DNA of 63,651 bases, the filler included, from Dugesia japonica (Eukaryota), in assembly GCA_001938525.1 (NCBI GenBank). It is 5 parts of 5 records of this genome, joined end to end, with 100 filler letters (N's around TTAATTAATTAA, not from the genome) between each part and the next. Parts side by side here need not be neighbours in the genome. Positions count along the whole stretch, not along the records: positions 1 to 13,756 come from MQRL01648582.1; 4 more parts are not named here. One strand, written 5' to 3'. The notes beneath the pieces were generated by a model. That model saw only the letters and a list, made by a program, of their open reading frames with translations, was not told the origin of the DNA and did no database searches. A program made the position numbers and the translations under genes. Of the stretch, positions 1 through 63,651 are shown piece by piece. Each line of letters starts with the position of its first letter. The stretch's first letter is position 1.

Positions 1-725
1 TTAGTAATACCCAGATCATATTCGTGCTTAGCGAATATGTGATCATATTTCCTCAATAACATATTCACAAGGATTGATAGAATTGATGTTTCAACTGTTA
101 TTTCATCATTCAGGATGTATATCGTTCCCATAATTGTATCCGGAAATAATGTTAGTGGTTTTATATCTAAATTTCTAATTTTCACTGAAAACGTGCCATC
201 CATAACATTGCTGACACTGCAAGTCTTTGGGATGCAATATTTCTCCGTTAATAACGGATTTGATTCGAACATTATTTCTCCTTAATGTTAATTTGTAGTA
301 GTTACTATACACACCGCTTCTGTTAATGGTGGAATAATAATTGGTTGATCCACATAGGCTATGTGCCCATTGTAAACCTTTCTACCTGTACGTGTTGCTT
401 CCACTAATTGTCCTGATACGCAATCGAAAACAACATCTTTTAGTTTACGCATGGTATCCATTTCAAGTAGAAATTCGAATATACATCTCCTCATGACTTT
501 GAGATTGTGCGTCATTTCTTGATCGCATAGTTTTATTTTACATTCCAGATAGCCAATTATATCTAATTCTGCCCCATTTACTCCGTTGTGCCTACTGTTT
601 GTTTTCATTATCGATCCCATTTCCGATTAATTTAACAAACTGGCTTCTATGATAGTAACTTCTGACCCTGAGTCTATCATAGCATAGACCACATGTTTAT
701 TGATCCTTATTCATCCTCGACCTTA
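1..725 (-). pseudogene. Pol N-terminus: retropepsin protease, post-protease beta-rich segment, start of RT region
   Basis: One frame with several point stops: IRINKHVVYAMIDSGSEVTII...GVNGAELDIIG...FLLEMD, then IIIPPLTEAVC...VKIRNLDIKPLTLFPDTIMGTI, then LLRKYDHIFAKHEYDLGIT. Confidence 0.85.
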
Positions 726-959
726 CAACCAACGTTTCCGATTTCTTTTGTTTCCGCTGAATTTAACATCTTCCCAATCTCGAAATTTCTTGCTTGTCCG
801 TTTTCTTGAACTTTGATTAGTCTCTGTATCACTTTTAAATCCATTATCGCTGGAATCACTGTCTTCATCATCCGGTTCCAATCGTACTACTGTATGCTTA
901 ACAGTTCCATGTCTCATTTTTAATTTTCTAATCTCATCATGATGATGCTTCAACAATAG

Positions 960-2088
960 AAATTTAGCACAAAATGTAAAGAAACCAATTATTTACTGCC
1001 ATGTGCATTCACCAACTTTGAATATACTATAAGTTGACAATAATTGTGTAAATACCAATTTTGCCAACACACAAATAACAAACTATGATAAGCATAATCA
1101 ACCTTGTTATTTACATAGTTTATTATTTTTATATCTTTGGCATTCAATTNNNNNNNNNNNNNNNNNNNNNNNNNNNNNNNNNNNNNNNNNNNNNNNNNNN
1201 NNNNNNNNNNNNNNNNNNNNNNNNNNNNNNNNNNNNNNNNNNNNNNNNNNNNNNNNNNNNNNNNNNNNNNGGTTGATATTAAGACAATTGGTGTACTCTC
1301 TACCCCAATTCCCTCCTTTTGAATGTTGTTCACCATGCTTCCTACCTGCTTTTTATTTAACCTTTTTACTTTTTGATTGTCCATTAATCTGGATCCCTTT
1401 TCTTCTGTTTTTTGTCTAGTTCCCTTTATTTGCGTGAAAGATAACTTTTTTAATAATGTCAATTCACAAAAACCACGTCTTTCTTCATATAAGAGTGTTG
1501 CGAACCCCGTTCGTCATGTAGAAAACTTTGAATTGCAATGTGGATTTCCAACCATATTTTCTGTTTCCACTTCGAATATTCCTTCATATTCTCTCAATTC
1601 AACTGTATAATCCTCTAAATCAACTACTCGATTTACCAAATTGTTTTGCCTTGTTTTTGTTCGACCAGTACAATCACCGTCTTCGTCGATATTTCCACTT
1701 CTAAAAATTGCTTCTGCCAGCGTCTTTCCGACTTCTGCTGTTAACGTCATTTCGCTATCGATAAATAATCTTCTGGTAATATATTTACTGGCCTTGGTAT
1801 GAGTTTTGCTGATAATATAGCAGCGTAACTATTCGTTCCACAGTAATATTCGAACACTGCCTTTTGAACTCTACATTCTCTCACTTTAGTTCTGTAAAAC
1901 TCCTATTCTTGATAAATATAATATACAGATGGCTTCAACATATCCAATCTATCGGGATAAGCTTCATTGCATTCTACTACATCTACCAATGAATATATGC
2001 CTGATGGAATAGGATTTTTGCAATCATATGCTAACAAACTACCTGTTTGCTTTATTAACCCTAACATCATCAAAGTAAATAATATGAT
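960..2088 (-). pseudogene. Env-like class III fusion glycoprotein (chuvirus/gB-type), internally deleted
   Basis: Hydrophobic signal IILFTLMMLGLIKQTGS, then LLAYDCKNP..YSLVDVVEC, ECRVQKAVFEYYCGTNSY, GNIDEDGDCTG, CNSKFST*RTG..FCE and INYVNNKVDY. The sequence then jumps to a hydrophobic tail FVICVLAKLVFTQLLSTYSIF...IIGFFTFCAKFLLL. As I recall it, this Cys and motif pattern matches chuvirus-like glycoproteins found in LTR elements. Confidence 0.75.
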
Positions 2089-4180
2089 TTGGGTTGGACT
2101 TTCGATTCCTGAACTAGTTGAACGAAATTCTCTCGGATTGAATTCATACCTCGGCATTTCACCATTAATTAATGGAAATTCATACCTATTTCTATGTATC
2201 TCTTCTTTCCACTCACTGGAAGATTCGATCCAAGCTTTGAATCTGAAATCATATACTAGCACAAACTTTAAAATTTTAGCTTGCACTTTGCGAACATCAT
2301 TGCCTGCATTTGCTAAGGCATTTCTAATCATAAGTGCTAAGGCAGTTATAGCCCGCCCTGTTGTAACTCCTTGTTCGGCCAAAGTATAAATAGTATTCTT
2401 TGTACTTTCACATGGTTTTTCTTGGGTAACCGTTTGATGAGTGTTTTTAGCAATAAAGCTAGCTTACTCATATCCCAATCTCCAGATCTCTTAATTTTCA
2501 ATTCTAGCTTTATAAGTCGAATTATTTGCATGATTTTGCAACCTGTTTCGGGTAACATTGACCCATCTATTTCATTTTCTAAATCAATTTCATTGATTAT
2601 ATTTTCTAAAACTTTAGCTCTAATTTCTCTAGCAACCGTTTCATCCACCGTTTCAACATTTGTTTTCTTTTTAGGTCTGCCTCTCTTTTCAACCTTTGGT
2701 TGATTTGTCTCAATCGGAGCTCTAGGTGTCAATGCCTCTGCATTTATTCCTGAATTACGAACAAGACAAGGATCTAATTCTTCTTCCACAAATATTTTTC
2801 GTGGTATGTTTAGTGCATTATCTATTGCATCTAAATCAACTTGAGGATCATACTCCTCGTTTTTGTTTTCAGCTACAGTTACCAGATTCTGCTGATTAAA
2901 CTCTGCTATAACTTCTGGCAGCCTCAACATTGTCCAGTATAATCAGCTCCTTCTACTGTCAATACTGATGCTAAAGTTGTCTGTGATGGCAAACATCCAA
3001 CATCTACTAAATATTCGTCATCAACTTGATTTCCCCAAATCACTATTAAGCAGGTGCTTGGATATCTAATCCCAATATCCATTCTCAACTTCAACACTTA
3101 CAAGAATATCTTTTGATTTCAGGTACCTCCTGATCTGGTTTTCTTATTTCTATTAAGAAATGACTCTGTCTCTTTGGGTCTTGTCTAATTGCTTTACCAA
3201 TTTTCCGTATCAACAGTCGGATTTCGTTCTGATAACTACTTGGCGTACCAGCCAGAGGTAGTAACAATGGTACTATTTCCTTTAATGTATCTGTTAGAAT
3301 GTTCAATGACAATGTCCAACTCAAAAATCATTAATACTTTCATTGTTTCTCGGGTTTGATTGAATTTCTCTTTCCAATCGCCGTTGAATCGCCTGAGCTT
3401 CTTGGAGCTGGTCTAATTCCATATGTTCTATAGCATATACACTATCTGGCTAGTAGTGGCTACCTCCACCACTTTCTCTTTAGCCTGTAATTCTGTCTTC
3501 AGATTCGGAAGAATTCCGCATAACAGAATCATTTTTTCTCTGTCTAATTTTTCATTGAACAAATATAGTTCAAATTCTCTGCGTTTTACTCTTTTTAAAT
3601 GCGTTGTTAACCTAGCTACTGGTTCCCGCACATTTATTTGAATGACTACATCTGCCCTTTTCGGCATATGTATAACTACTTGAGCATTTCTCAAATCCCA
3701 ATCATGCTGCAATTTGTTGCCTATTTTACGACAAATTTCTGCAATTGGTTTAAAATAAACATTTTCATGCTTAACTGTAGATAANNNNNNNNNNNNNNNN
3801 NNNNNNNNNNNNNNNNNNNNNNNNNNNNNNNNNNNNNNNNNNNNNNNNNCATTTAATATGATTTGAAAATCCTTCCTGGATTCAACTATGCTTTTACAGC
3901 TGTCAAGAATCTCGGATTCTTGATGATATACTTCTGGGTTTGTACCCTGTGATTGCTTATTTCCGACAATCGTTGCTGCGGACTCCTCCAATCTCGGTTG
4001 GGGATCCTCTGTTATAATAAAGACTTGATTTACTTCTGGGTCTGTACCCTGCGATTGCTCATTTGTGACAATCGTTGCTGGGGATTCCTCCAATCTTGGT
4101 TGGGGATCCTCTGTTATAATAAAGACCGTGTCCTTATTATTTAACTTAGCTAATCTGTTTCTCTCCTCCTGGATTTCCAT
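2089..4180 (-). pseudogene. Unidentified coding region of the retroelement polyprotein between Gag and the Env-like protein
   Basis: Chain of minus-strand ORFs (3428-4180, 3091-3324, 2346-2930, 5' part of 1903-2382) linked by stops and frameshifts. Charged composition, no motif recognised. Confidence 0.6.
3931..4126 (-). repeat. 102-bp (34-aa) in-frame tandem duplication
   Basis: VFIITEDPQPRLEES(P/A)ATIV(T/G)N(E/K)QSQGT(D/N)PEV occurs twice. Confidence 0.95.
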
Positions 4181-4790
4181 TTCCAGTTAAAGTAAATACG
4201 TCATACCCTCTCCCAAGTTGATCATATTTACTGATTGCTTGGCTGCTTGGCCAACTTTATGTTGTTCTTGTGGACATGATACCTTCAAGTGCCCGAACTT
4301 TCAACATCCGTGACACTTAATTTTTCCGTTTGAATTGACTGTGTCTCTATCGACATTATTATTATTTGCTTTGCTTCTGCAAACCTTGGCTACATGGCCC
4401 ATTCGTTTACAATTTTCACAATTTAGATTTTTCTTTTTGCAATTCTCTGTAGTGTGATTATAATAATCAAATTTTGTACATTGAATACCCTTATTCTGCT
4501 CTGCATTCAATTTAACTTTACAATCTTTAGATATGTGCCCCTTTTTATGACATCAATAACACTCAACCACTTTTGGTTTCTCTGAATTTATTGCAAAGGT
4601 GCTTTTGGTATTAATTAAGCTTGTTTCTATCAACACAGCTTTCTTGGTTAGTTCCTCGTAGTTTTCTCCTACATATAAGCTCAACGCGTTTCGCACCGCT
4701 GGCTTTAAACCTGACCACATCTGGTCCCTTACAATTAATCTAGTGGCATCATTCCACTGTGCTTTGTTTCCGAAAGCTCTTTCTGCTAAT
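4181..4790 (-). pseudogene. Gag C-terminal half with four zinc knuckles
   Basis: Reads ILAERAFG...VRDQMWSGLKPAVRNAL, then CY*CHKKGHISKDC, CTKFDYYNHTTENC (degenerate), CENCKRMGHVAKVC and CHGC*KFGHLKVSC. Same frame as ORF 3428-4180. Confidence 0.85.
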
Positions 4791-4806
4791 ATTTTATTTG
4801 TCTTGT

Positions 4807-5065
4807 TAAGTTAATTATCATTATAATTCTTGTTGTAATGATTAAAACGTAACGTAAATTATCAAATTTTAGTGTATTATTAAGTTAATTCCATTACAAT
4901 TTTTATAGTAATGATTTAAACTACATAATATTATCAACATTTTTAGTGTAATAATAAGTTAATTTCATTGCAATGTTTATTGTGATGATTTTATTAAAAT
5001 TGCTAAGTTAACTATCATTATAATTTTATTGTAATGATTTAAATTTAACATAATATTATCAAATT
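4807..5065. repeat. Degenerate ~74-bp AT-rich tandem repeat
   Basis: taagttaa(t/c)t...catt.caat...gtaatgattt recurs at ~4807, 4881, 4955 and 5004. It truncates the gag region. Confidence 0.65.
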
Positions 5066-5389
5066 TTAAATTAATAATTTTTACTTAACTTCATGATTTT
5101 AATTGAACTAAATGATTTAACTTCCTAATATAACTTAATTTTTTTAATTTAATGATTTAACTTACTGATATTAATGAATGATAAATATATATTTTTAAGT
5201 TTTTATTACTTTTTAGTGTGATTTTACCTGACTCAATATATTTATCGATTTAATTGTAATTTAATTGATTTGATTATAATTGTATAGCAATTTAATGAGT
5301 TTTATATTCCTTTAGATAAATGCTTACTGTACAAAAACTACTATACTAATACAAGACATAATGTTGACTGCCATAAAGTGATGCAGAAA

Positions 5390-7173
5390 TAAATCGTGTC
5401 CGAATACGGTCAACATGGTGCTCTAATTGTTTAAATGGATTCGGAAAAAATGCAGCTTTTGAAAAACATGAACCTCTTTGTAGTAAAATCCAGACAGGTA
5501 CCACGTTATATACCATGCCGACCGATCCTAACTTATAATTTAAAGACTACTCAAAAACTATAAGTTCTCCATTTGTCATATACGCTGATTTTGAATCAGT
5601 ATTATCACCAGATGAAGATTATTATCAAAAACATTTACCTATTACAGCCGGACTTCTGTTAGTTAACAACTACACTAACGCAAAAAAATATCAAGAATTT
5701 ATTGGAAGCGACGGTGTTTTTAAATTTTTGAAAGAGATTGAGGAAATCAGCAAGATAACTGTGCATCCGTATTATATGAATAATGGTAAAAAAAGTGAAT
5801 ATAACTCTGGATCAAGAAATTTCCTTTGTTGCTACCAAAACATGTCATTTATGTAAGAAATCATTAGTATGTTCTGTTAGAGACCACGATCATTTCAGAG
5901 GTGAATACATGGGTGCAGCATACAACAGTTGCAATCTAAAGAGAAGAATAAATATGCAATTACCGGTTGTATTCCATAATTTAAGAGGATATGACATGCA
6001 TCATATTCTTAAGTATGGACTTCGTCAGTTCCCATATTGGGACCTTAGCTGTATTCCAACTACAAGTGAAAAGTTCTCGTGTCTTATTGCACATCAAACA
6101 AAGTCACCTACCATTCGATTTATTGATTCATATCAATTTATCAACTCATCTCTAGATTCAGCTGTTAAAACCATTAAAACATATCCTTTAACATCATTGG
6201 AATTTATCGACAACAGAATTATAAGGACAAAGGGGATTTCAGATACAATCACGATACCAATTTACAAGTAATGGTTAATACAAAGGAAATGCCACCAAAA
6301 TGGGATGGAGTTAGTTATGAAGAACATAAAACAGCGGTGGATATGTGGAAAATCTTGAAATGCAAAAACTTACTGGACTATATGCTGGTGTACATGATGC
6401 TGGACGTCTTTCTCCTAGCTAACTTTTTTCAGAAATTCCGAGCCAAGTCATTAGTTCACAACCGTCTGGAACCCTTAAATTTCTTTGGCATTCCAGGTAT
6501 GAGCGGGGCATCTGCTCTGATGACTTTAAACACACCCATCGAGCTTTTGACTTTTAATGACATGTACGCCTTTTTTGAAGATGGAATTAGAGGTGGGCTC
6601 ACCTTTGTCAACAAACATCATGTTATTTCAGATGAAAACGCAGAGTTGTTATACATCGATATAAATAACCTGTATGGTTTGGCTTTGAGTCAGAAGTTAC
6701 CATGCAAAGATTTTGAATGGGTATATTGTGGATTAGAAATAGTTTTAGAAGAATGTAAATATGCAGATCTCGATTCGTTACAATATGGATACACTCTAGA
6801 AGTTGATATTGAGATTCCCAACGAACTTCACAATTATCTCAGTGACTTACCCATTTCAGCCGAACATCAATGTGCTCCAGGAAGCAAGGTCAAGAAATTA
6901 ATGTTGACTCATTATTCAAAGGTCAATTACATAGTGCACTTGAGATTACTGCAAATGTACTTGCAATTAGGCCTGCGAATTACAAATGTTCACAGGGCAG
7001 TTAGATTTTCACAAAATCATATTTTCAATTTCAAACAATTTAGAATAGGAACAAAAAACCACTAGCTGTATAGTTTCTTAGGACTAAAAGTCGCATTAAC
7101 CAATAATGACGACAAAAGAGTATGGACTGACAAAAACATAAGCGTACCATACGGACATTATTCTATCTCGTAG
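5390..7173 (+). pseudogene. Protein-primed family B DNA polymerase (Polinton/Maverick/adintovirus type), frameshifted and internally deleted
   Basis: Zn finger CSNCLNGF...HEPLC, ExoI VIYADFES, EndoVII-like CHLC..VRDHDH..G...CNL, ExoII FHNLRGYD, RFIDS, ExoIII Y...DV, GIRGG and motif A YIDINNLYG. It then jumps to the C-terminal KVALTNNDDKR...PYGHY*. Confidence 0.9.
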
Positions 7174-11845: not shown

Positions 11846-13686
11846 TTACATCATCTCTTTAAAACTTTTTTTAATTTTTTCCACATTTCTTTCGATCATC
11901 TTGTCTTCTGAACTCTTCAGCAGGTATCGCTGTTCATGAATATGTTTTATCACCTCGTATGGACCTACATATCTTTCTTTGTCTTTTGATCTGTTTTCTA
12001 CCTTGGTAAACACATCTTCTCTAACTTGAAAATATCTCTTTGTTGGTGTCAACTATTCAGAATTTCATTCTTTTCTCCATTACTGAACAATCGTTCTCTA
12101 TGTATCTTCTTACCGAATATCACATCTGCTGGACTTATCTCAAAAGTCTTCTGGCTTGTTGCATTTAGTGTATATACAACCTTTGGTATTAACTCGAAAA
12201 TTTTAACTCGACCAATTTTTATTCTTTTTATCTTTTAATGTTGCATTAATATAATCTCTGATCGTTCTGAATTGGCATTTTACTATTTCATTTATATTAT
12301 GATGATATATACTTGAAAAGCAAATCGCTATATTGATTGAATCTGTCATCTCTTTAAAACCATTCGATTCGAAGATCTTTCCGCAATCTAGATGTATCTC
12401 TTTTGGAGCACCAAATCACAGGATTCATTTTTACATAATCGTTTTCTTTATTGATTCTTCATCTTGTTTGACTGGGGCTGTTAAAAAATATGTATCTACT
12501 AAATTCATTTATTATGTCACATATACATATTCTCCGTCCCAAGGTTTCTTGTAATGGTTCACAAATATCTAAATAAATACTTTCAAGGGGTTCATAAGCC
12601 TTTAACTTTAAAGTTTCCGCCTTTGTTCTGACTATTGTTACTATCTTCATTTGGCACGCTGTAAATTCTTTTATTAGTTTTGACGCAGTTTCTCTTAAAT
12701 CTTCCATATCATATTCATTTTTCAAATAATTCATCACATTTTCCGTAACTGTGTGAACCAATAAACCACGAATTTCTTTTACCATTTGAATTTTCTTTTC
12801 TGTTGGGATCCATATTTTGCCATCTTTTGTTTTTATTATATCTTCTATTAATCAAAGGTTTTTACATATTATATTTCTTATATCATTTGTTATCTGTTTA
12901 ATTTCTTCTACGTTACTTTGGCATTTATATGTATCTGAATATGATATACCATTAATTGTTCCTGTCTTTATTTTTCTTTCTTTTGGATTCTCATGATCTG
13001 TTAAGCATTGTACACATGTACCACAATTCATTGTCGACAGCATATCTGCATTCGTATGTTTCGCAACTTGTCTAAATTCCAATACCATATCTAGTCTACT
13101 AAGAAATTTCATCCAAGTCTGAAATTGTAGAGTAATTGGCTTGTTTGTCTTTTTCATAAATGCTATCGCTTTGCGATCTCTTCTTACCAAAAATCTTTTT
13201 TCATACAGATTATGTTTGAAATGGTTACCGAAATAGTAAATAGTAAAAAAATTCTATTCTTTTTATACAATATCCTTTTTCATGAGCTGACATTGAATGT
13301 AACCCATATGCAATGACTTGTTCTGAACTTCTTTCATCTATTTGCAATAAAACTGCTCCGATGGCATCAAAACTTGCATTTGTATCTAGTACAAATATTT
13401 TTTTGATATCTGGAAAACTCAATATTGGTGCTTTTGTTAATGCCTCTTTCCTATCATTAAAAGCTTTGTCAGAATTTTCACACCACACAAGTTTTTTTAT
13501 TGTTACTTCCACAAAGCTCTTCCAAGATTCTTGCTTTCTTTGAGTAATTATTGATAAACCGTCTATAATAATTGCATATTCCCAAAAAGCTTCTCAAGTT
13601 CTTTACACATTTAGATCTTCCGAAATTTGGAATCGCTTCAATATTTGTTGGATTCGTTCAAATTCCATTCTTGTCTATGACATGTC
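11846..13686 (-). mobile_element. Ty3/Gypsy pol remnant (RT end, RNase H, integrase with GPY/F)
   Basis: APILSFPD..FVLDTNASFDAIGAVLLQ..VIAYG, PLESIYLDICEPL and RYVGPYEVIK. Multiple stops and frameshifts. Confidence 0.9.
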
Positions 13687-27737: not shown

Positions 27738-29900
27738 AATTTGATGATAAAAAGCATCTTCCATGGTCAGCATGAATCGATCTTGGTGAGCCAAACTTCA
27801 GTAAGCAATATTCACTCAAAATCTTGATTAAAGTTTAACCACCTTGATTTTTTACTGTTTTTAGTGAAATATATTTGCTATACTGATTGCAAATATATAC
27901 TTTTTTCCTGTGATTGTCAATTTAAATGGTCCACACAAATCTATATAAATAAATTCAAGTGGTTCATGAGACGCTAATTTTAGGCATTTTTCTTTTGTTT
28001 TCATTGTATACACTTTTCTTTCATGAGATATTCTGCAATTCTGAATATTTTTCTTGACATATTCTTCAAAGTTTTCTATATAATATTTTTGTTTCTTGAA
28101 ATGGTATACCTTTTGAAATCTAGCATTGTATAACTTTTTGTGCTTTTCCGTAATTTTGTGATTTCGTTTATCCCTAGGAACATATATTTTATTATTTTTA
28201 AAAACAATTCCGTCTTGATATTCAAATTTTACTGTCTTTTTACTTTCAATCCTATCTATTGTTTTATTAATTTTTTTATTATTTCTCTGCATTTCACACT
28301 TCATGATATTTTCATTTTTAACTAATAAACGAGTTTGGGTTTTCTAGTTTTAGCATCAGCGTGTTCTATATTACATTGTTTACACAACTTGTTATTCAAT
28401 CTTGATAAAGCATCTACGTTTGAATGTTTCTCTTCTTTTCTGTACTCCAACTTTTTATTTAAACTATTGATAAAATTTGTCCAATTTTGAAATTGAGCTG
28501 AATTTGGTTTTTTTGTTGTTAAAATAATGTTTATCGCTTTATGGTTTGGTCGCTATACAAATTGTTTTCCGTATAAATAGTGCTTAAAGTGTTGAGTAAA
28601 GTGAAATACTGAAAGTAATTATTTTCTCGTAATACAAAAATTTTCATTATTTACAAAGATTAAATCCGTATTACATCTAATTCATTATTAAAGTAATTAT
28701 GAAAATTATCAAACGAATTACTCGAATAAACAAAAAAATCTAAACAATTTTCAGAACATTCATTCAAACATATATTATAAACAGACATAAAATCACATAA
28801 ACTCACAGTATTACATTTATATTTAATAAATCTTGAATCAAAGGCATCACTTATTCCATCTAAATAGCTTTGATCATTTCCTTTTTGGTTGAAGCTTTGT
28901 AGTTTTCGTAAACATTTGAGCATCTCTAGTTTGAGAACAGACATTATCTAGTGTAGCAACTCGATCATATCGAATGGAAAATATCCTGTCATAAAAATTC
29001 TGAGTTCTATAATTATCATAATTTTTTCTATTGGTAATATTCTTCTCTCTGTGATTGTTTCTTAATTGAAAACAATTCCTGCTTAAATGTCCTCTCCTTT
29101 GACAAGTTGAACAATGCAAATTTTGGAAACTTTCTTCTGACATGGTTGAATTCTTGGTATCCATAACATTGAAAGTTTTTTTATAATTGTCAGAATTCAT
29201 TGGTTTTGTATGGGTTGGTCTTGGAATTGTCTTTGATTGTTGGTTTTATATTAATTTCTTGATTCTTCACCGTAATATTTTTTTTAATTATCTCACTTTG
29301 AACATATGGATACGAATTGTATTTTTGCAACTTGGGCATAAATTGGTCTATTGAGAATCAAAATATGTGCATTTCGATTTCTTTCTGCAACTGATTTTAA
29401 AATTTCTTTGATATATTTCACTGGAGTTGGTCCTCATTGATCTTCAATTTCCTATTTTCCTGATTTTAATTTGAGAAAAGATTCTGTATACTTAAATCTA
29501 GAAACTTCTTCTTTCATTGTTTTATCATCCAGGGATTACTTCAATAAAAAGTGGTGCGTTTAGTCGACGTCAATTTGTTTCGCATTACTTTCTCTACGTT
29601 CTTTTCAACTTATTGGATATATTCTTCGATTGAATTATTCCTTTTTCAATATTGTAACGTATTTTGTGTCTTCTGCCAAATTACTAGATTAGCGATTAAT
29701 TTTCGTAATTTTTCTTCATAACTATTTCAACCATTGAGCTTTTCTAATTGTCTTCTAGAATCTTCGTCCATAAAAGCTCGAATTAATATATTTCTTTGTT
29801 CTGGATTGATTTGGATTAAATCGAANAAATTAATTAATTTTTACGATGAATTCTTCTACATTCATATTTGAGAAGAAAATATTCGGCTGTGGAATTAATC
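27738..29900 (-). mobile_element. Ty3/Gypsy remnant: gag with knuckle, RNase H end, integrase
   Basis: CSTCQRRGHLSRNC (~29075-29117); FCITRK*LLSVFHFTQHFKHYLYGK; integrase KIYVPRDKR...PLEFIYIDLCGPF. Confidence 0.8.
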
Positions 29901-51400: not shown

Positions 51401-53399
51401 TTTTTTATCATACATATAAAACCTGAAATTGACAGTAATGTTTAACTTTCTGTTGTGATGGATGTATTCTGACAAAATATGTCACTAGCGTATTGTGTTT
51501 TAGATTTTATTTTAATGAATAGTTAATTTTTAAAATAATTTTTTAGTTCCAGTGTGACGTACTTTCAAGGAGGGTTCAGAAATTTGTTACAAGGAGGAGA
51601 AGACTGGGTAAAAATTGTAAAAAAAATAACTTAAAAATCTAACATTATCCAAAAAAATCTTCAAGATGCAACAATTCAAAATAATGTACAGAATATTTAT
51701 ATCGAATTTCAATAATTGGTGTTTCTTTATTTTTTTTATATTTCTTTGTTCTAGTATGACATTAACACTTTTAAATAAATAATTACATTCATATATTACA
51801 CGATGTACCGTAAATTTGGTAACATTAACATGAATAAATCTCTCAAAGATTTACAATTTTACAAAAGTAAAATTGCAATTGTTTAAAATATATTCTTTTA
51901 TTCGTTCCATGTTATTTTCTACTATGTTTTACTGTCATTTACCAACTTTTTGTTTGATATCACATCCTTTTCACATTGATCGACAATTTTAACCTACCTT
52001 TAAAGTTTTTTTTAATCTATGGCACTACAACCAAATATTTAACGAATTTTATCAATTTGATCGATGAATCCTGACACAATTTGCTAATTACATTTCACAT
52101 TACTTAATGTTTAATAAACAAAGTGGTTAATTATTAAAATCAACAAATTTAAATTACAAAATTAATAAATTAAATTAACAAGTGATATTTTATTTTTCTA
52201 AAACATTATTCAACAAAGCCATCTTTATTTTCAATGCAAAATCTTAATACATATTCATATGATTCTTTTTATGAAAAACCCTATTAGCTGTTGAAATTGA
52301 TAGTTTAATGGTAAATTAAAGTCGTATTGTTCAGTGGAAAATATGGCAAATTAATTAGAAAAAATGACAACTTTTGCCTGGAAAATTTAGCAATTACCTT
52401 TCAACATTAAATATAAATTTAAACAATATTCAGTAAGCAGATTAATAACTATGAAATCTTATAAATTTTTCACGTTATCATAGTGATAGTATTTTATCTA
52501 AATAGAGACAAATATTTAAATATTGTCGTTTGAAGGAATGATAATGTATATATCGGAATATCTATGATATTCCAAGAAAATCATGAGAAAACCTATAAAG
52601 AAAAAATAATTTAACATACCATTCAAGACCGGAACATTGATAATTTGATAAGATTCTTCTCTCATAAAGGGATTAAATATAACTTCTAATCCTTCACCAC
52701 AAGCCATTAATTTATTCTCACAAGTAATTAATAAAGTCACGCCACTACCACATACAATTTGTTGTATTCCATCAATACTTGCTAAAGTTGGTTTAACCCA
52801 ATCAGCTTTTGTTGAAAACCCCAATTCTCCTTTAATACCACAACCCCAGATAAACGTTGAATTTGAATACTCCTTTATCCAATAATCTGGTGAATTCTGA
52901 TACCACTGGTAAAGCTCAATTTGTTTTTTCATAGTCCAGTAATGGTTATTCTAAATCGTATGACAAATAATGTAGAATAAAACTCAAGTACCCATTTTGA
53001 TTCTATATAATGATGAACAAGTTCTTCTGTTCCAACGCACCAAACCCACCACCATTTAGGAATTATATTTACTGGAATTTCACATTCAAAACAAACGGAT
53101 TGTGTAAGTTTCACCATTTCATCAATCATGAACAGCCAATCCAAGTGGTGATTGGGAAGAGCTCTACCATTTATATTCAAAATATGTCTTAATATTCCGC
53201 GATTTTGGTATGTTTCGTTGGTAATTTCAAATAAACATGGTGGTTTAAAACTATTATTTAAATCAATCGGTTCCATAAAAGAACATGACGTGAATTTAGG
53301 AATAAAATTCAATGAAATTGCGAATTGAATTAAGCATTGGAGATATTGAGAAAAAACAATTGAAAATCCAGATTTCACAGATTCCACTTCTTCAAGAAA
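44593..53399 (-). CDS. HERC1: HERC1-like E3 ubiquitin ligase, partial (pre-RLD2, RCC1-like domain 2, start of HECT region)
   Basis: GT-AG exons 53399-52992, 52950-52620, 49270-49089, 49038-48889, 48134-47985 (donor uncertain), 47940-47593, 45228-44925 and 44879-44593 splice in phase to 720 codons with no stop seen. RCC1 repeats include GEVFSWGIGSHGKLGHG, SCGVNHTLALSTDG..FAFGEGAYGKLG and VACGQNFSVALTKSG. The post-RLD segments ARLIFL..W..WQF and PVFIQTCRQV...LRLPWRAWK match HERC1 as I recall it. Confidence 0.85.
45660..46230 (+). mobile_element. Gypsy gag remnant in a HERC1 intron, same family as 35780-36300
   Basis: Shares ggaaaactg...aaattcaatggatga.aaa..gtt.aaaagg and aaaataaaaattatga.cagaaaatt with the 36 kb copy. 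Confidence 0.6.
46400..47410 (-). mobile_element. 3' fragment of an RLE-type non-LTR retrotransposon (R2/NeSL-like)
   Basis: CLKCSYHLETETHVRCHC knuckle and RLHHDVLELLA, then decayed endonuclease GVKTP...ARNTNINKYMPL and ISVGCL. Confidence 0.7.
49326..50041 (-). mobile_element. Small TIR element (Tc1/mariner-like derivative) in a HERC1 intron
   Basis: ta-CCAGGTGGTGTATG at the left end and CATAAACCACCTAG-ta at the right end. The left end is duplicated internally at ~49590-49646. Confidence 0.5.
51284..51635. mobile_element. Harbinger-like MITE
   Basis: tta|GGGGCCGTCCATAAAGTATGTCACGC start, with internal gtgtgacgtacttt and G-rich tracts. The 3' TIR is eroded. Confidence 0.55.
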
Positions 53400-59370: not shown

Positions 59371-62300
59371 TCTGTCAGAACGCCAATCTAATGGTAAAAT
59401 TGAGTAAGCCAGTGACTCTACAGGACGCTCTGGCCACATTGCGAATTGTAGCAGATAAACCATCGGAACGAATATTCAAAGTAGAAGGACAGGCAGAGAA
59501 AACTACACCGAGGATATCAGATTTCATCCCTAACACACAATCTATGCTGAAAACCCTGACCCCAGGCCAAGAACGGATTAACAGGAATGATAGACCTAAC
59601 TACCCCCGAGGAAATGGTGGAGGATTTAATGCACCTCGGAATAACTGGCAAAATAATCGAGATAGACAATGCAATTCCTGTGGAAGAAGGGGACATATAG
59701 CCCGGGATTGTAGAGGTAGAGGCAATAATAATAACAACAATCGATTTTGTACTTATTGTAAAAGAACCAACCACAATGTGGAAACGTGTTTATTGAAAGT
59801 TCCAACTGTCTGTTATAAGTGTAACAAAAGAGGGCATATGACAAAGGAATGTCCTAGCGGAAATCAAGTACAGCAGAAGAGACTGGCAAAAAGAAATTTG
59901 CTAAACGAACCACACAAGAATCAATGTAATATGGTTAGAACACATAGGCAAATTTTTAACCAACATGACGAAACTACAGAGGTTACAGAAATGGAGGATA
60001 CTTAAAAACGAATACTAACCACATCACCAGAATTCTAATGGACCAATGAAATCATCTATTAAACCATAGAAACCTCAACGACAACCACCGAAAGAAGGCG
60101 AGTGACGAATCAGCTTCTTCGATTATACCAGCACCCACAAGTACACGCAAAAGTAAAAGCTAACTTACATCGCCGAGCTTTATAAAGAAACTAAGTTAGA
60201 AGATTATGAATTTGAAATTCAATATGTATGGCATAAAAACCCAGAAGTCATTCTAAAACGATTTAAACTACCACTAAAAGGATTGACAGTACGACACTTG
60301 AAACAAGCACTTAACGAAATAAAATGGAGCGAAGTAAACGGTATCAAAAGTAGGACGGTAAACCCGTTGCTCGAATTACCACCATTTAACGATCAGCAAC
60401 AATGGAATGGAAAATGGAATAGGCACAGATTGCAAATAGGTAATATAGGAATCAATATTCTTCCGGATGACAAGAACCTAATTTATTATGAGACCCGACT
60501 CCATGAAACAACATTAATCAAATTAATAAATTAGGGATTGGTGTTCAGGCCACAAATAGTAATTCAAGAAATAGAAACAGAGGAGTTGTATCATAATCTC
60601 GAAGAAACATTCTAAAAGGAAATAGTTACCACCCAAGCTCAAAGCTACGTATGAAAAGTATTTGAGAAAGTAGGAGTAATGGACTATCCAGAAACTTCAT
60701 GAGACAATAAAGAGAAAAGTATACTTAAAACTTACCAATCGATTAGTAGAGTTGTTAGAAGTCATAAAACTGGTCAATAATTTTAAAAGCGATTGAACAG
60801 AATGGTTACCAGTGCATTATGGTTGGGTAATATCCAATATGGTATTATCAGATTACCAAGGAAACATGAAACTGACACTCACGGGATTAATGGTAGAAGA
60901 TCTGGAATCGGCGCTTAATCAAGCAGGCTATCCATGAATAACTGATAAATACGTATGTACTCCAAGTGCTTTAGTGGATTTTAATGCCAAAAAAAGACAT
61001 CTATACGATTTTGGGGTAAAACCAGGAGAAGAAATGGAAATTTTAATATTGGACAAACAATTTGGTATCGACTATGACATATAGGTAACGAAAACCGGAA
61101 GATCAGCATTAGAAATCATGGGAGAAATGGAATACCTATATAAACAAGAAGTGGAACCTATTAAAATAAAGATACTTTCCACAGTATTGGGAAAGAAAGA
61201 CAAACTGACCAAGAAAAAGAGGAAGCAGTTATTGATGACGCGTAACGATTTTCTCAAACAACGATTAAAGAGGAAAGAAAGTAAATGCAACATGATAAGG
61301 ATGTGGCAAATGCCGGCAAGAGAAGTAGTACCAATGCGCAAAGTAGAGGAAATGGTTAACCGAGTACAGATAGAGAACGAGAAGTTACCCCGAAACACAT
61401 ATTGGATGATAATGAATAGAATTTACGATATATATGATTGGTTGGAACTACCGGAGGAAATTGATAATCAATGGCTCATGATTAGACAGAAGTATGCCGA
61501 AGAAATATTGGCAACTACCAAGATTCAGGACTATAAATTATACTTGAATATAGATAAAAATGAACAAGAACTGACTAAATACAGCCGATTAAAACCACAA
61601 GGAATAACCATGATGGATTTAATGGATGCCATTATCGATAAGTGACAAGAATATTGAATAAACATGGTACCACTATTCATAAACGGCAAATTGGTCGAGA
61701 CAGATGATGAGGACGAACACATATTCCAATGCCATGCAAAGCCCGGAGAAATATGCGAGTTAGATGTAGAGGAAGAGCCGCGGACAGCTCAATCACCAGA
61801 TCTCGAGGAACGAATGGAGGAAATAACGGAATTATACGTATCTGAGGTACTAACGGGTATAAAGGAACAAGTAAAAGAAAATCAGAAAATACAGAATATT
61901 GATAAGTTACCAATAATTATCACAAAATCAGTTGAATTTCCAAAAGGGATACCGACAATACGTGATATTTGGATAAACTACACGAAACGAATAACAGATG
62001 AATCAGCCACGTTTCATGCTATCAATGATCTGTTACGAGTAACACGGAAAACTCGACCAGTAGTGAATATCAAAGTATATTGGAAAATGATGAATAACCT
62101 ACGGGATCTAGCAACCTATGGACAACTCAGCTTGTGAGCTCGAGCACAATGGTGAAAAGAGAAAACCTTATACGAAGAGGAAGTACAAAATACATCCACT
62201 ATATCTAACTATTCTATCAGAATCAGCCTTTTTAGTAAAGAGGGAAGCATAAGGAAGATAGATATTATAACCCTGGAAGGATTAACTATCCATCATATCA

Positions 62301-62649
62301 TAAAACCGATCAAGACATGGTTATAGCCAAAACCAATCAAATCATATAAAATACAAGCGGGAGCCACAATGATCATAGCACAAATGTATTATAATGCCTA
62401 TCCACAATATGGTTGGCAACCAATAAATCCACAACCACCACAGGTATGGGCACCAGGTCCTATGTACAACAACCTTTAAATGAGTCCACCACAAGCTCTT
62501 AATATGGCATTATTGACGGAGAATAATCTCGCAACCATTGACAGAAGAACAACGGATCAAAATTTACGTCCTCCGAATAACCAGATCAATGAAGATGATA
62601 AATTAGAAACTCAAACCGTATGCATGATGATTTCTCAGAGAGCGAAATT

Positions 62650-62975
62650 ATTACAAAAAAGGATAAAAATAGACGGCAGATGGGTAATAGCCATTATCGA
62701 TACTGGAGCAAGTATGACGTTAGTCCACAAAAGAATATTAGAGGATTATCGACTACTGCGAATAACAATTACTAAAGAAGTTATCATCACAGCCTCTGGA
62801 GAAAAAATCTCACTCGTTGGGGAAGCAATATGTGCAATAGAAAGTGACGGAATCCGTCTATGGCATAAATTACAAATAATGAATGAACTAACTTTCAACT
62901 GCTTATTGGGACTGGACCTCTTACCACGTCTATGTCCAGAGGGAATATTAGATATGAGGAAACTAACGATTCGGA
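62650..62975 (+). pseudogene. Retropepsin-like aspartic protease 1
   Basis: IKIDGRWVIAIIDTGASMTLV...TASGEKISLVG...CLLGLDLL. Confidence 0.9.
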
Positions 62976-63269
62976 AAAATCATGATCGCGAATATGCGCC
63001 GGTAGGTTATCAGAAAACTAGAATAATAACCAAACAAAAACGACCGCAGCAACGGAAACAACCAATTACCAACCAACAACTACGACTCTCATCAGGCAGA
63101 GGTGAGCAAAATAACTCAAACCAAGATGGTTGGAAAACTAAAAACACGCCTACCATGATAAGAGACGATTGGATAAGATTTCAAGAATGAGAACCAAGGT
63201 GGAAAAACAAAAAACAACTTAACCCCAATCGTAACCCTTCGGAGTTAGTATGCGCAAGTCTCAACGGCG

Positions 63270-63600
63270 TACCCGTACTAACAATTATGGTTAAAATCAA
63301 TGATAGACCTACAACAGCATTATTAGACACAGGAGCAACAATCTCGTTGTTATCAATAGAAGAAATCGCAATAACAGAATATAAAAATATATTACCTACT
63401 AATACTACGGCGGATGTGGCAAACGTAAGCAGTCTTAAAATTTTTGGGGAATTAGCTTGTGAAGTAGAATATCAAGACAACAAAATCAAGCACAAAATGA
63501 TAATAGTAGAAATGGCTGGACAGTGCATTTTGGGTACGGACATTCTCCCAATTTTGATGAAGAATGGCATATTAAAATTCTCCACATTACAGTTGCAATC
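63270..63600 (+). pseudogene. Retropepsin-like aspartic protease 2 (not in the ORF track)
   Basis: VKINDRPTTALLDTGATISLL...VANVSSLKIFG...CILGTDIL. Same frame as protease 1, separated by one TGA at 63188. Confidence 0.9.
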
Positions 63601-63651
63601 CTTGGAGGGGTATACCCACGTTAAAGATCATGAAGTATTCACTACAGAAGA

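Follow-up and report, generated by a model that had tools for sequence, protein, structure and literature searches.

Positions 1 to 4790 of the stretch of Dugesia japonica DNA analysed here raise the question of what kind of retroelement carries an envelope glycoprotein (env) ahead of its protease, and whether such an element would be made as a single polyprotein. The whole stretch, referred to as the window, comprises 63,651 nucleotides, filler included, and joins five parts of five records of assembly GCA_001938525.1. Its first 13,756 positions come from MQRL01648582.1. Its GC content of ~25% and the likeness of the element to known ones point to a planarian as the likely host. With a probability of roughly 0.85, positions 1–4790 hold what decay and internal deletion have left of one copy of a Ty3/gypsy-type long terminal repeat (LTR) retroelement, which is present in many copies and belongs to the Burro / GAG-ENV-POL errantiviruses. 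In its intact ancestor, Gag, a Bcl-2-like domain, a gB-type envelope and Pol were likely encoded in one frame.

The order of the parts was read from a three-frame translation of positions 1–4900 and from Pfam scans, in which the frames were read with X in place of stops. On the minus strand, zinc knuckles are followed by a spacer, a signal-like stretch, a glycoprotein, a membrane anchor, an aspartic protease and a segment that precedes the reverse transcriptase (RT). This is the order given in an earlier note made from the sequence alone, which had described a gypsy-like element whose env sits between Gag and protease. The hydrophobic stretch at exactly 2088–2038 and the second one from ~1082 were likewise located where that note had placed them, and the DSG motif of the protease was found too. 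Several CCHC knuckles are present in Gag, four in all at 4561–4274, two of which are interrupted by stops and one of which is degenerate; Pfam counts two stretches. With tblastn, the Gag part aligned to residues 133–258 of P0034 and 169–287 of P0002, two of the relatives described below. At the other end, alignments to P0013, P0033 and P0050 stopped at base 3, each of them 57 residues before the start of Pfam RVT_1. No Pfam match to a dUTPase was obtained for this last segment at E values up to 1, though it aligns to the relatives.

A search with phmmer of positions 1747–2466 against 1.84 billion representative sequences gave 49 matches. The domain scans covered 12 of them (all ten of at least 1000 residues as well as P0009 and P0029) and 11 further proteins. 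In all ten long relatives, more than 100 residues of the open reading frame (ORF) precede env. The protease follows env in the same ORF in seven of the ten, and RT, RNase H and integrase do so too in four. A CCHC knuckle ahead of env was recognised by Pfam in two of the ten; in P0037 it was found by eye, hence a single frame of this protein extends from the knuckle past env as far as integrase. The order protease-RT-RNase H-integrase was seen in P0013, P0033, P0037, P0048 and P0050, while the window ends before RT. P0033 (945–1337) aligned to window positions 1082–3 in one high-scoring segment pair (HSP; E 2e-17), and a dArc2-like capsid match (E 0.0068) lies at the start of P0016. In the relatives, env is seen in frame between gag and pol, the window copy itself being broken. 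Taken across the relatives, the earlier claim of one frame for the gag, env and pol parts stands. For the window copy it does not, as several frame switches occur between 3450 and 1760 on the way from gag to env. Since the relatives carry env and protease in one ORF, the order is not the product of a nested insertion, in agreement with what the note had concluded. Its supporting argument was that the frame from ~1082 leftwards is broken only by point stops. Such a frame exists, with six stops in 360 codons from 1082 to base 3 vs 29 and 34 in the other two frames (over 1077–715 plus 711–1). As an argument against nesting it is weak because it begins at a deletion joint in env and probably crosses another.

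Several of these proteins have further features. P0050 (4844 residues) contains env, up to seven protease stretches, ankyrin repeats, C2H2, RT and integrase, and several aspartic protease domains stand in a row after env in P0002, P0004, P0013, P0019 and P0050. P0033 (2627 residues, env-protease-RT-integrase) is filed as a hypothetical protein of a Flavobacteriaceae metagenome-assembled genome and is likely animal DNA in a bacterial bin. In P0029 the env piece is joined to an ion-transport domain, and in P0007 to a mitochondrial ribosomal L47 domain; both are probably chimeric gene calls.

The glycoprotein was assigned to the chuvirus/gB type by its match to PF24664 (Monjiviricetes_fusion), which reached 32.8 bits against a cut-off of 27 (E 2.5e-8, profile positions 4–100). 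A second piece in the next frame corresponds to positions 131–193 of the 653 in the profile (E 0.021). Assignment of gB-type env to class III comes from PMC13524379 and is carried over here as a prediction. A search of PDB sequences with the env piece returned no match. The ectodomain piece at 1073–2037 has two stops, a frame switch near 1762 and a run of N at 1150–1270. The hydrophobic stretch from ~1082 is best read from the alignments as the true env anchor, fused to a truncated ectodomain: at 1073–1082, paired HSPs in 4 of 13 relatives compared by tblastn skip ~235 residues, with jumps from 469 to 705 in P0004, 473 to 709 in P0013, 709 to 945 in P0033 and 887 to 1122 in P0034. The remaining nine had no HSP on one side of the joint or a low-identity run past it. 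That the rest of env could be hidden in the N gap at 1150–1270 was considered and rejected, given that HSPs over this gap are approximately collinear (222 residues over 230 codons for P0013). The glycoprotein of the earlier note is therefore present, but not whole.

Directly before the env signal, a Bcl-2-like domain is predicted. Alignment A1 was made from the stretches at this place in eight relatives together with the window piece. When its profile was compared with the PDB, the best 60 rows all belonged to the Bcl-2 family, with Bcl-xL on top (E 1.7e-5) and BH1 and BH2 in register. Pfam Bcl-2 was matched by seven of the nine members of A1, all below the curated cut-off, and P0009 alone matched Bcl-xL with E 0.01. 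With a profile of seven relatives that left out the window, the best match in a six-frame translation of the entire window was at positions 2472–2194 (8.2 bits vs -2.6). The domain is not universal: this profile matched 8 of 51 proteins at an independent E value below 0.001, seven of those by construction. A word-based protein search with the Bcl-2-like alignment recovered no more than two of the aligned members themselves, Atlas gave no usable match for the Bcl-2-like piece and P0047 alone had one weak, unrelated match. The domain was also considered as a new feature, an idea that was dropped since BCL-2 has already been described in Burro elements (PMC6431247). The earlier note had left ~2 kb between Gag and env as unknown spacer. 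Its last part is now accounted for by this domain; in 3125–4813, Pfam at E values up to 1 found nothing besides zf-CCHC.

The gag-env-pol layout has been published and is not new, contrary to the suggestion in the earlier note that the design might be undescribed. Burro/GYPSM1 elements are giant gypsy-like LTR retrotransposons of planarians with one polyprotein that contains Gag with CCHC knuckles, Ubi2/SUMO-like, BCL-2, env, protease, a dUTPase-like segment and RT (Arkhipova & Yushenova 2019, PMC6431247). Several CCHC knuckles (four here vs three or two in Burro), a BCL-2-like domain before env, env ahead of protease and an extra segment before RT are common to both, the second of these being weak in the window's own piece. 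Burro carries MATH, BIR and ankyrin cargo, whereas no such domain was seen by Pfam in the 4.8 kb of this truncated and deleted copy. The env of Burro, in frame between gag and pol, has matches to mononegavirus fusion glycoproteins and was likened to gypsy Env by HHpred (PMC6431247), while Pfam and PMC13524379 point to the chuvirus/gB type for the window.

GAG-ENV-POL Ty3/gypsy elements with an env of the HSV/gB type (HSV, herpes simplex virus) were reported from Nematoda, Bryozoa and Platyhelminthes, and Schmidtea mediterranea accounts for six (Chary & Hayashi 2026, PMC13524379). They resemble the window element in gene order and env type and differ in being intact. The closest named env is that of Smed_errantivirus_4, with 96 of 169 residues identical (~57%, counted by eye in the domain I-II row of supplementary file 2) and no gaps inside the two pieces compared. 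Among the six elements of S. mediterranea, identities of 31–38% and, for one pair, 64% are given for the 12 of 15 pairs shown. Judged against these values, ~57% places the window family as a sister of Smed_errantivirus_4 and not in the same family. Bcl, apoptosis and ubiquitin are not mentioned in the main text of PMC13524379, nor is a polyprotein discussed there. The gene order has a further parallel outside flatworms. Endogenous retroviruses of nematodes (Sacco et al. 2022, J Gen Virol) reportedly have a continuous gag-env-pro-pol ORF. As far as they are described, they likewise place an RNA-virus-type env before pol in a metavirus.

The window copy is damaged in several ways. N-terminal Gag and the 5' LTR are absent from the locus, and 20 contigs of run X1 diverge from the window at 4793. 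Besides the loss within env, a second deletion just before the protease is probable, as suggested by the contigs of other copies that leave the window at 711 (10 of run X1 and 4 of X8) and 714 (1 of X8). Length differences relative to other copies lie at or adjoining the frame switches near 3447, 2938, 2416 and 1762. Elements were listed in PMC13524379 on the strength of intact ORFs; with its stops, frame switches and ~235 missing env residues, the present one is a decayed copy rather than an intact member. Positions 600–2500 were covered by 1107 contigs of run X1, 176 of which are at least 99% alike, although such depth sums are not a copy number. RNA reads were absent in run X21 and amounted to 22 in run X22, all less than 95% alike, which is no test of expression.

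The same element with the same gene order could also have expressed gag, env and pol as separate ORFs, by way of a stop, a frameshift or splicing. The window copy changes frame several times between gag and env, the ORF of three of the ten long relatives closes around where env ends, and PMC13524379 speaks of ORFs in GAG-ENV-POL order, which were searched with gaps of up to 2000 nt; 'single ORF', 'fused' and 'in-frame' do not occur in its main text. However, the length differences at the frame switches fit damage in the window copy, the env signal has no start codon at its beginning and sits in an open upstream frame, seven of the ten long relatives read from env into protease, and Burro was described as in-frame (PMC6431247). 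Separate expression is therefore considered unlikely.

Nested or chance neighbourhood, in which an ordinary gypsy element has received a piece of a viral glycoprotein or a second element that bears env, would agree with the observation that chuvirus-like glycoproteins among endogenous viral elements are often flanked by fragmentary gypsy elements, and with the lack of clear glycoprotein capture by Gypsy in arthropods (Dezordi 2023, PMC10084718). It is refuted in substance by the same order inside single ORFs of many relatives and is given almost no credence. Related contigs reach similar depth over gag, spacer, env and protease, a published GAG-ENV-POL element has a matching env (PMC13524379), and self-blastn found no LTR-like repeat in the window. 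In particular, no such repeat bounds env; LTRs of its own around env were named in the earlier note as something that would speak against its reading. An assembly chimera of several family copies, with the deletions as short-read artefacts, is suggested by the two N gaps inside the element and by many similar copies, none of whose mapped contigs covers the whole stretch. The stops and differences peculiar to this copy are distributed evenly, as they would be in an old insertion, and the collinear HSPs across 1150–1270 show that this gap does not hide the missing env. A chimera, which appears highly improbable, would moreover alter the state of the copy and not the layout of the family.

The reading as a decayed copy of an ancestrally single-frame element leads to the question of how one frame could yield proteins on both sides of a membrane. 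Of the 28 relatives in which the env start motif was found with 20 residues upstream, 25 have small residues at -3 and -1 before it (background 7.8%), and the window fits this pattern. Small residues at these two positions are the rule for signal peptidase. All eight long relatives compared show a single strong hydrophobic peak where env ends, and no other follows within 140 residues (the peak in P0004 consists of two overlapping windows). A membrane-threaded polyprotein fits this conserved signal-peptidase-like site and the single peak, and we infer it on these grounds. Gag would be made in the cytosol, and the internal signal would direct the env ectodomain into the endoplasmic reticulum, where host signal peptidase would cleave at the conserved small-x-small site. 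The single anchor would bring protease, RT and integrase back to the cytosol, to be released by the element's own protease. After the cut, the signal would remain attached to the Bcl-2-like domain and serve as its tail anchor, and this domain may damp apoptosis of the host cell. The window copy is incapable of any of these steps.

Polyproteins of flaviviruses and alphaviruses have internal signals and a host signal-peptidase cut, and their anchors alternate luminal and cytosolic parts. The layout predicted here is alike in its working only; genes and replication are unrelated, and a gB/chuvirus-type fusogen stands in a retroelement genome. It is a tentative idea, and one we hold to be rather less than even in probability, that flatworms have enveloped viruses built from one flavivirus-style, membrane-threaded polyprotein, in which signal peptidase frees env, the leftover signal becomes a Bcl-2-like tail anchor and Gag, Env and Pol would arise at 1:1. 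This processing model is absent from section 7 of PMC6431247 and from the results of word searches of PMC13524379.

Several points weigh against this overall interpretation. The window contains neither RT nor LTRs: the 5' end of the element is cut at 4790 and its 3' half would lie beyond base 1. The relatives are ORF calls on contigs, that is, open frames and not translation starts or proven translation units, and three of the ten long ones (P0014, P0016 and P0034) end within or soon after env without a protease, where contig ends and real stops are indistinguishable. Word-based protein searches with two env pieces (against proteins of 208–2000 and 1100–3500 residues) returned no close relative and no intact copy of the window's own family; a metagenome scan gave one locus out of 185 candidate stretches, with a match of 17 residues on a 2.3-kb contig. 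For the Bcl-2-like domain, the members of the profile were chosen after the motif had been seen, and the 8.2 bits of the window's own piece are weak. As to the topology, the signal peptide is over the hydropathy threshold in just four of the eight long relatives, and the peak at the end of env measures 25–37 residues and might consist of two spans, in which case Pol would come to lie on the wrong side.

The coordinates of the features are given in the table. The ubiquitin-like stretch was proposed by eye, and a profile from the corresponding stretches of five relatives, also chosen by eye, scored 5.9 bits at 3046–2984 vs 3.1 for the next match; this is weak, and no library match identified the stretch. 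A basic motif that we presume to be AT-hook-like is found in the spacer at 2667–2687 on the minus strand. Similar motifs precede env in P0002, P0013, P0016, P0019 and P0050.

Table. Parts of the retroelement copy and its 5' boundary, in window positions.
Feature	Positions	Strand	Evidence or remarks
AT-rich tandem repeat, 5' bound of the element and outside it	4791..5182	.	Tandem Repeats Finder periods 74, 19, 13; contig joints back to 4791
C-terminal Gag: capsid end and four CCHC-type knuckles (4561-4274)	4274..4790	-	translation; Pfam zf-CCHC E 3.2e-6; tblastn
Spacer after Gag	3100..4273	-	102-bp tandem duplication 3924-4126; N gap 3785-3849; frame switches
Possible ubiquitin-like stretch (weak, by eye)	2948..3097	-	own profile match at 3046-2984
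Predicted Bcl-2-like domain directly before the env signal	2194..2472	-	BH1-like ~2370-2338; BH2-like ~2235-2209 (diverged); frame switch near 2416
Internal signal-peptide-like stretch with a small-x-small site at its end, sharing the frame of the upstream Bcl-2-like domain	2038..2088	-	stop-free ORF 1906-2463; hydropathy 1.71
N-terminal ectodomain part of a chuvirus/gB-type fusion glycoprotein	1073..2037	-	PF24664; 49 homologues; tblastn; likeness to Smed_errantivirus_4
Predicted membrane anchor and cytoplasmic tail of env, with ~235 residues deleted between them and the ectodomain	918..1082	-	HSP pairs that skip residues (4 of 13 relatives)
Acidic/basic linker with a probable second deletion joint at 711-714	711..917	-	translation; contig ends
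Retroviral-type aspartic protease, DSG at 674-666	438..710	-	Pfam Asp_protease E 1.5e-7
Segment between protease and RT; RT would start left of the window	1..437	-	tblastn to P0013, P0033, P0050

Other elements were found elsewhere in the window. Fragments of a protein-primed type B DNA polymerase at 5539–7065 on the plus strand (Pfam DNA_pol_B_2, E 4.8e-6 and 9.4e-8) are likely a Polinton-type remnant adjoining the element. Another retroelement runs off the right edge at 60157–63649 (plus strand) and has tandem aspartic protease domains at 62480–63187 and 63191–63649, which recalls the relatives with multiple proteases. Further gypsy-type remnants with RT/RNase H pieces and a zinc knuckle lie on the minus strand at 12462–13593 and 27864–29245, and an RCC1-like repeat piece at 52519–52950 (minus strand) is probably an exon of a host gene.

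The locus itself is of little weight, since the copy is dead and elements of its kind have been published. The conserved signal-peptidase-like site in 25 of 28 relatives amounts to a concrete and testable processing model, for which the intact relatives and not the window copy are the material. The kind of element is notable in that one frame must yield a luminal fusogen together with cytosolic Gag and Pol, and a domain that resembles a regulator of apoptosis in addition.

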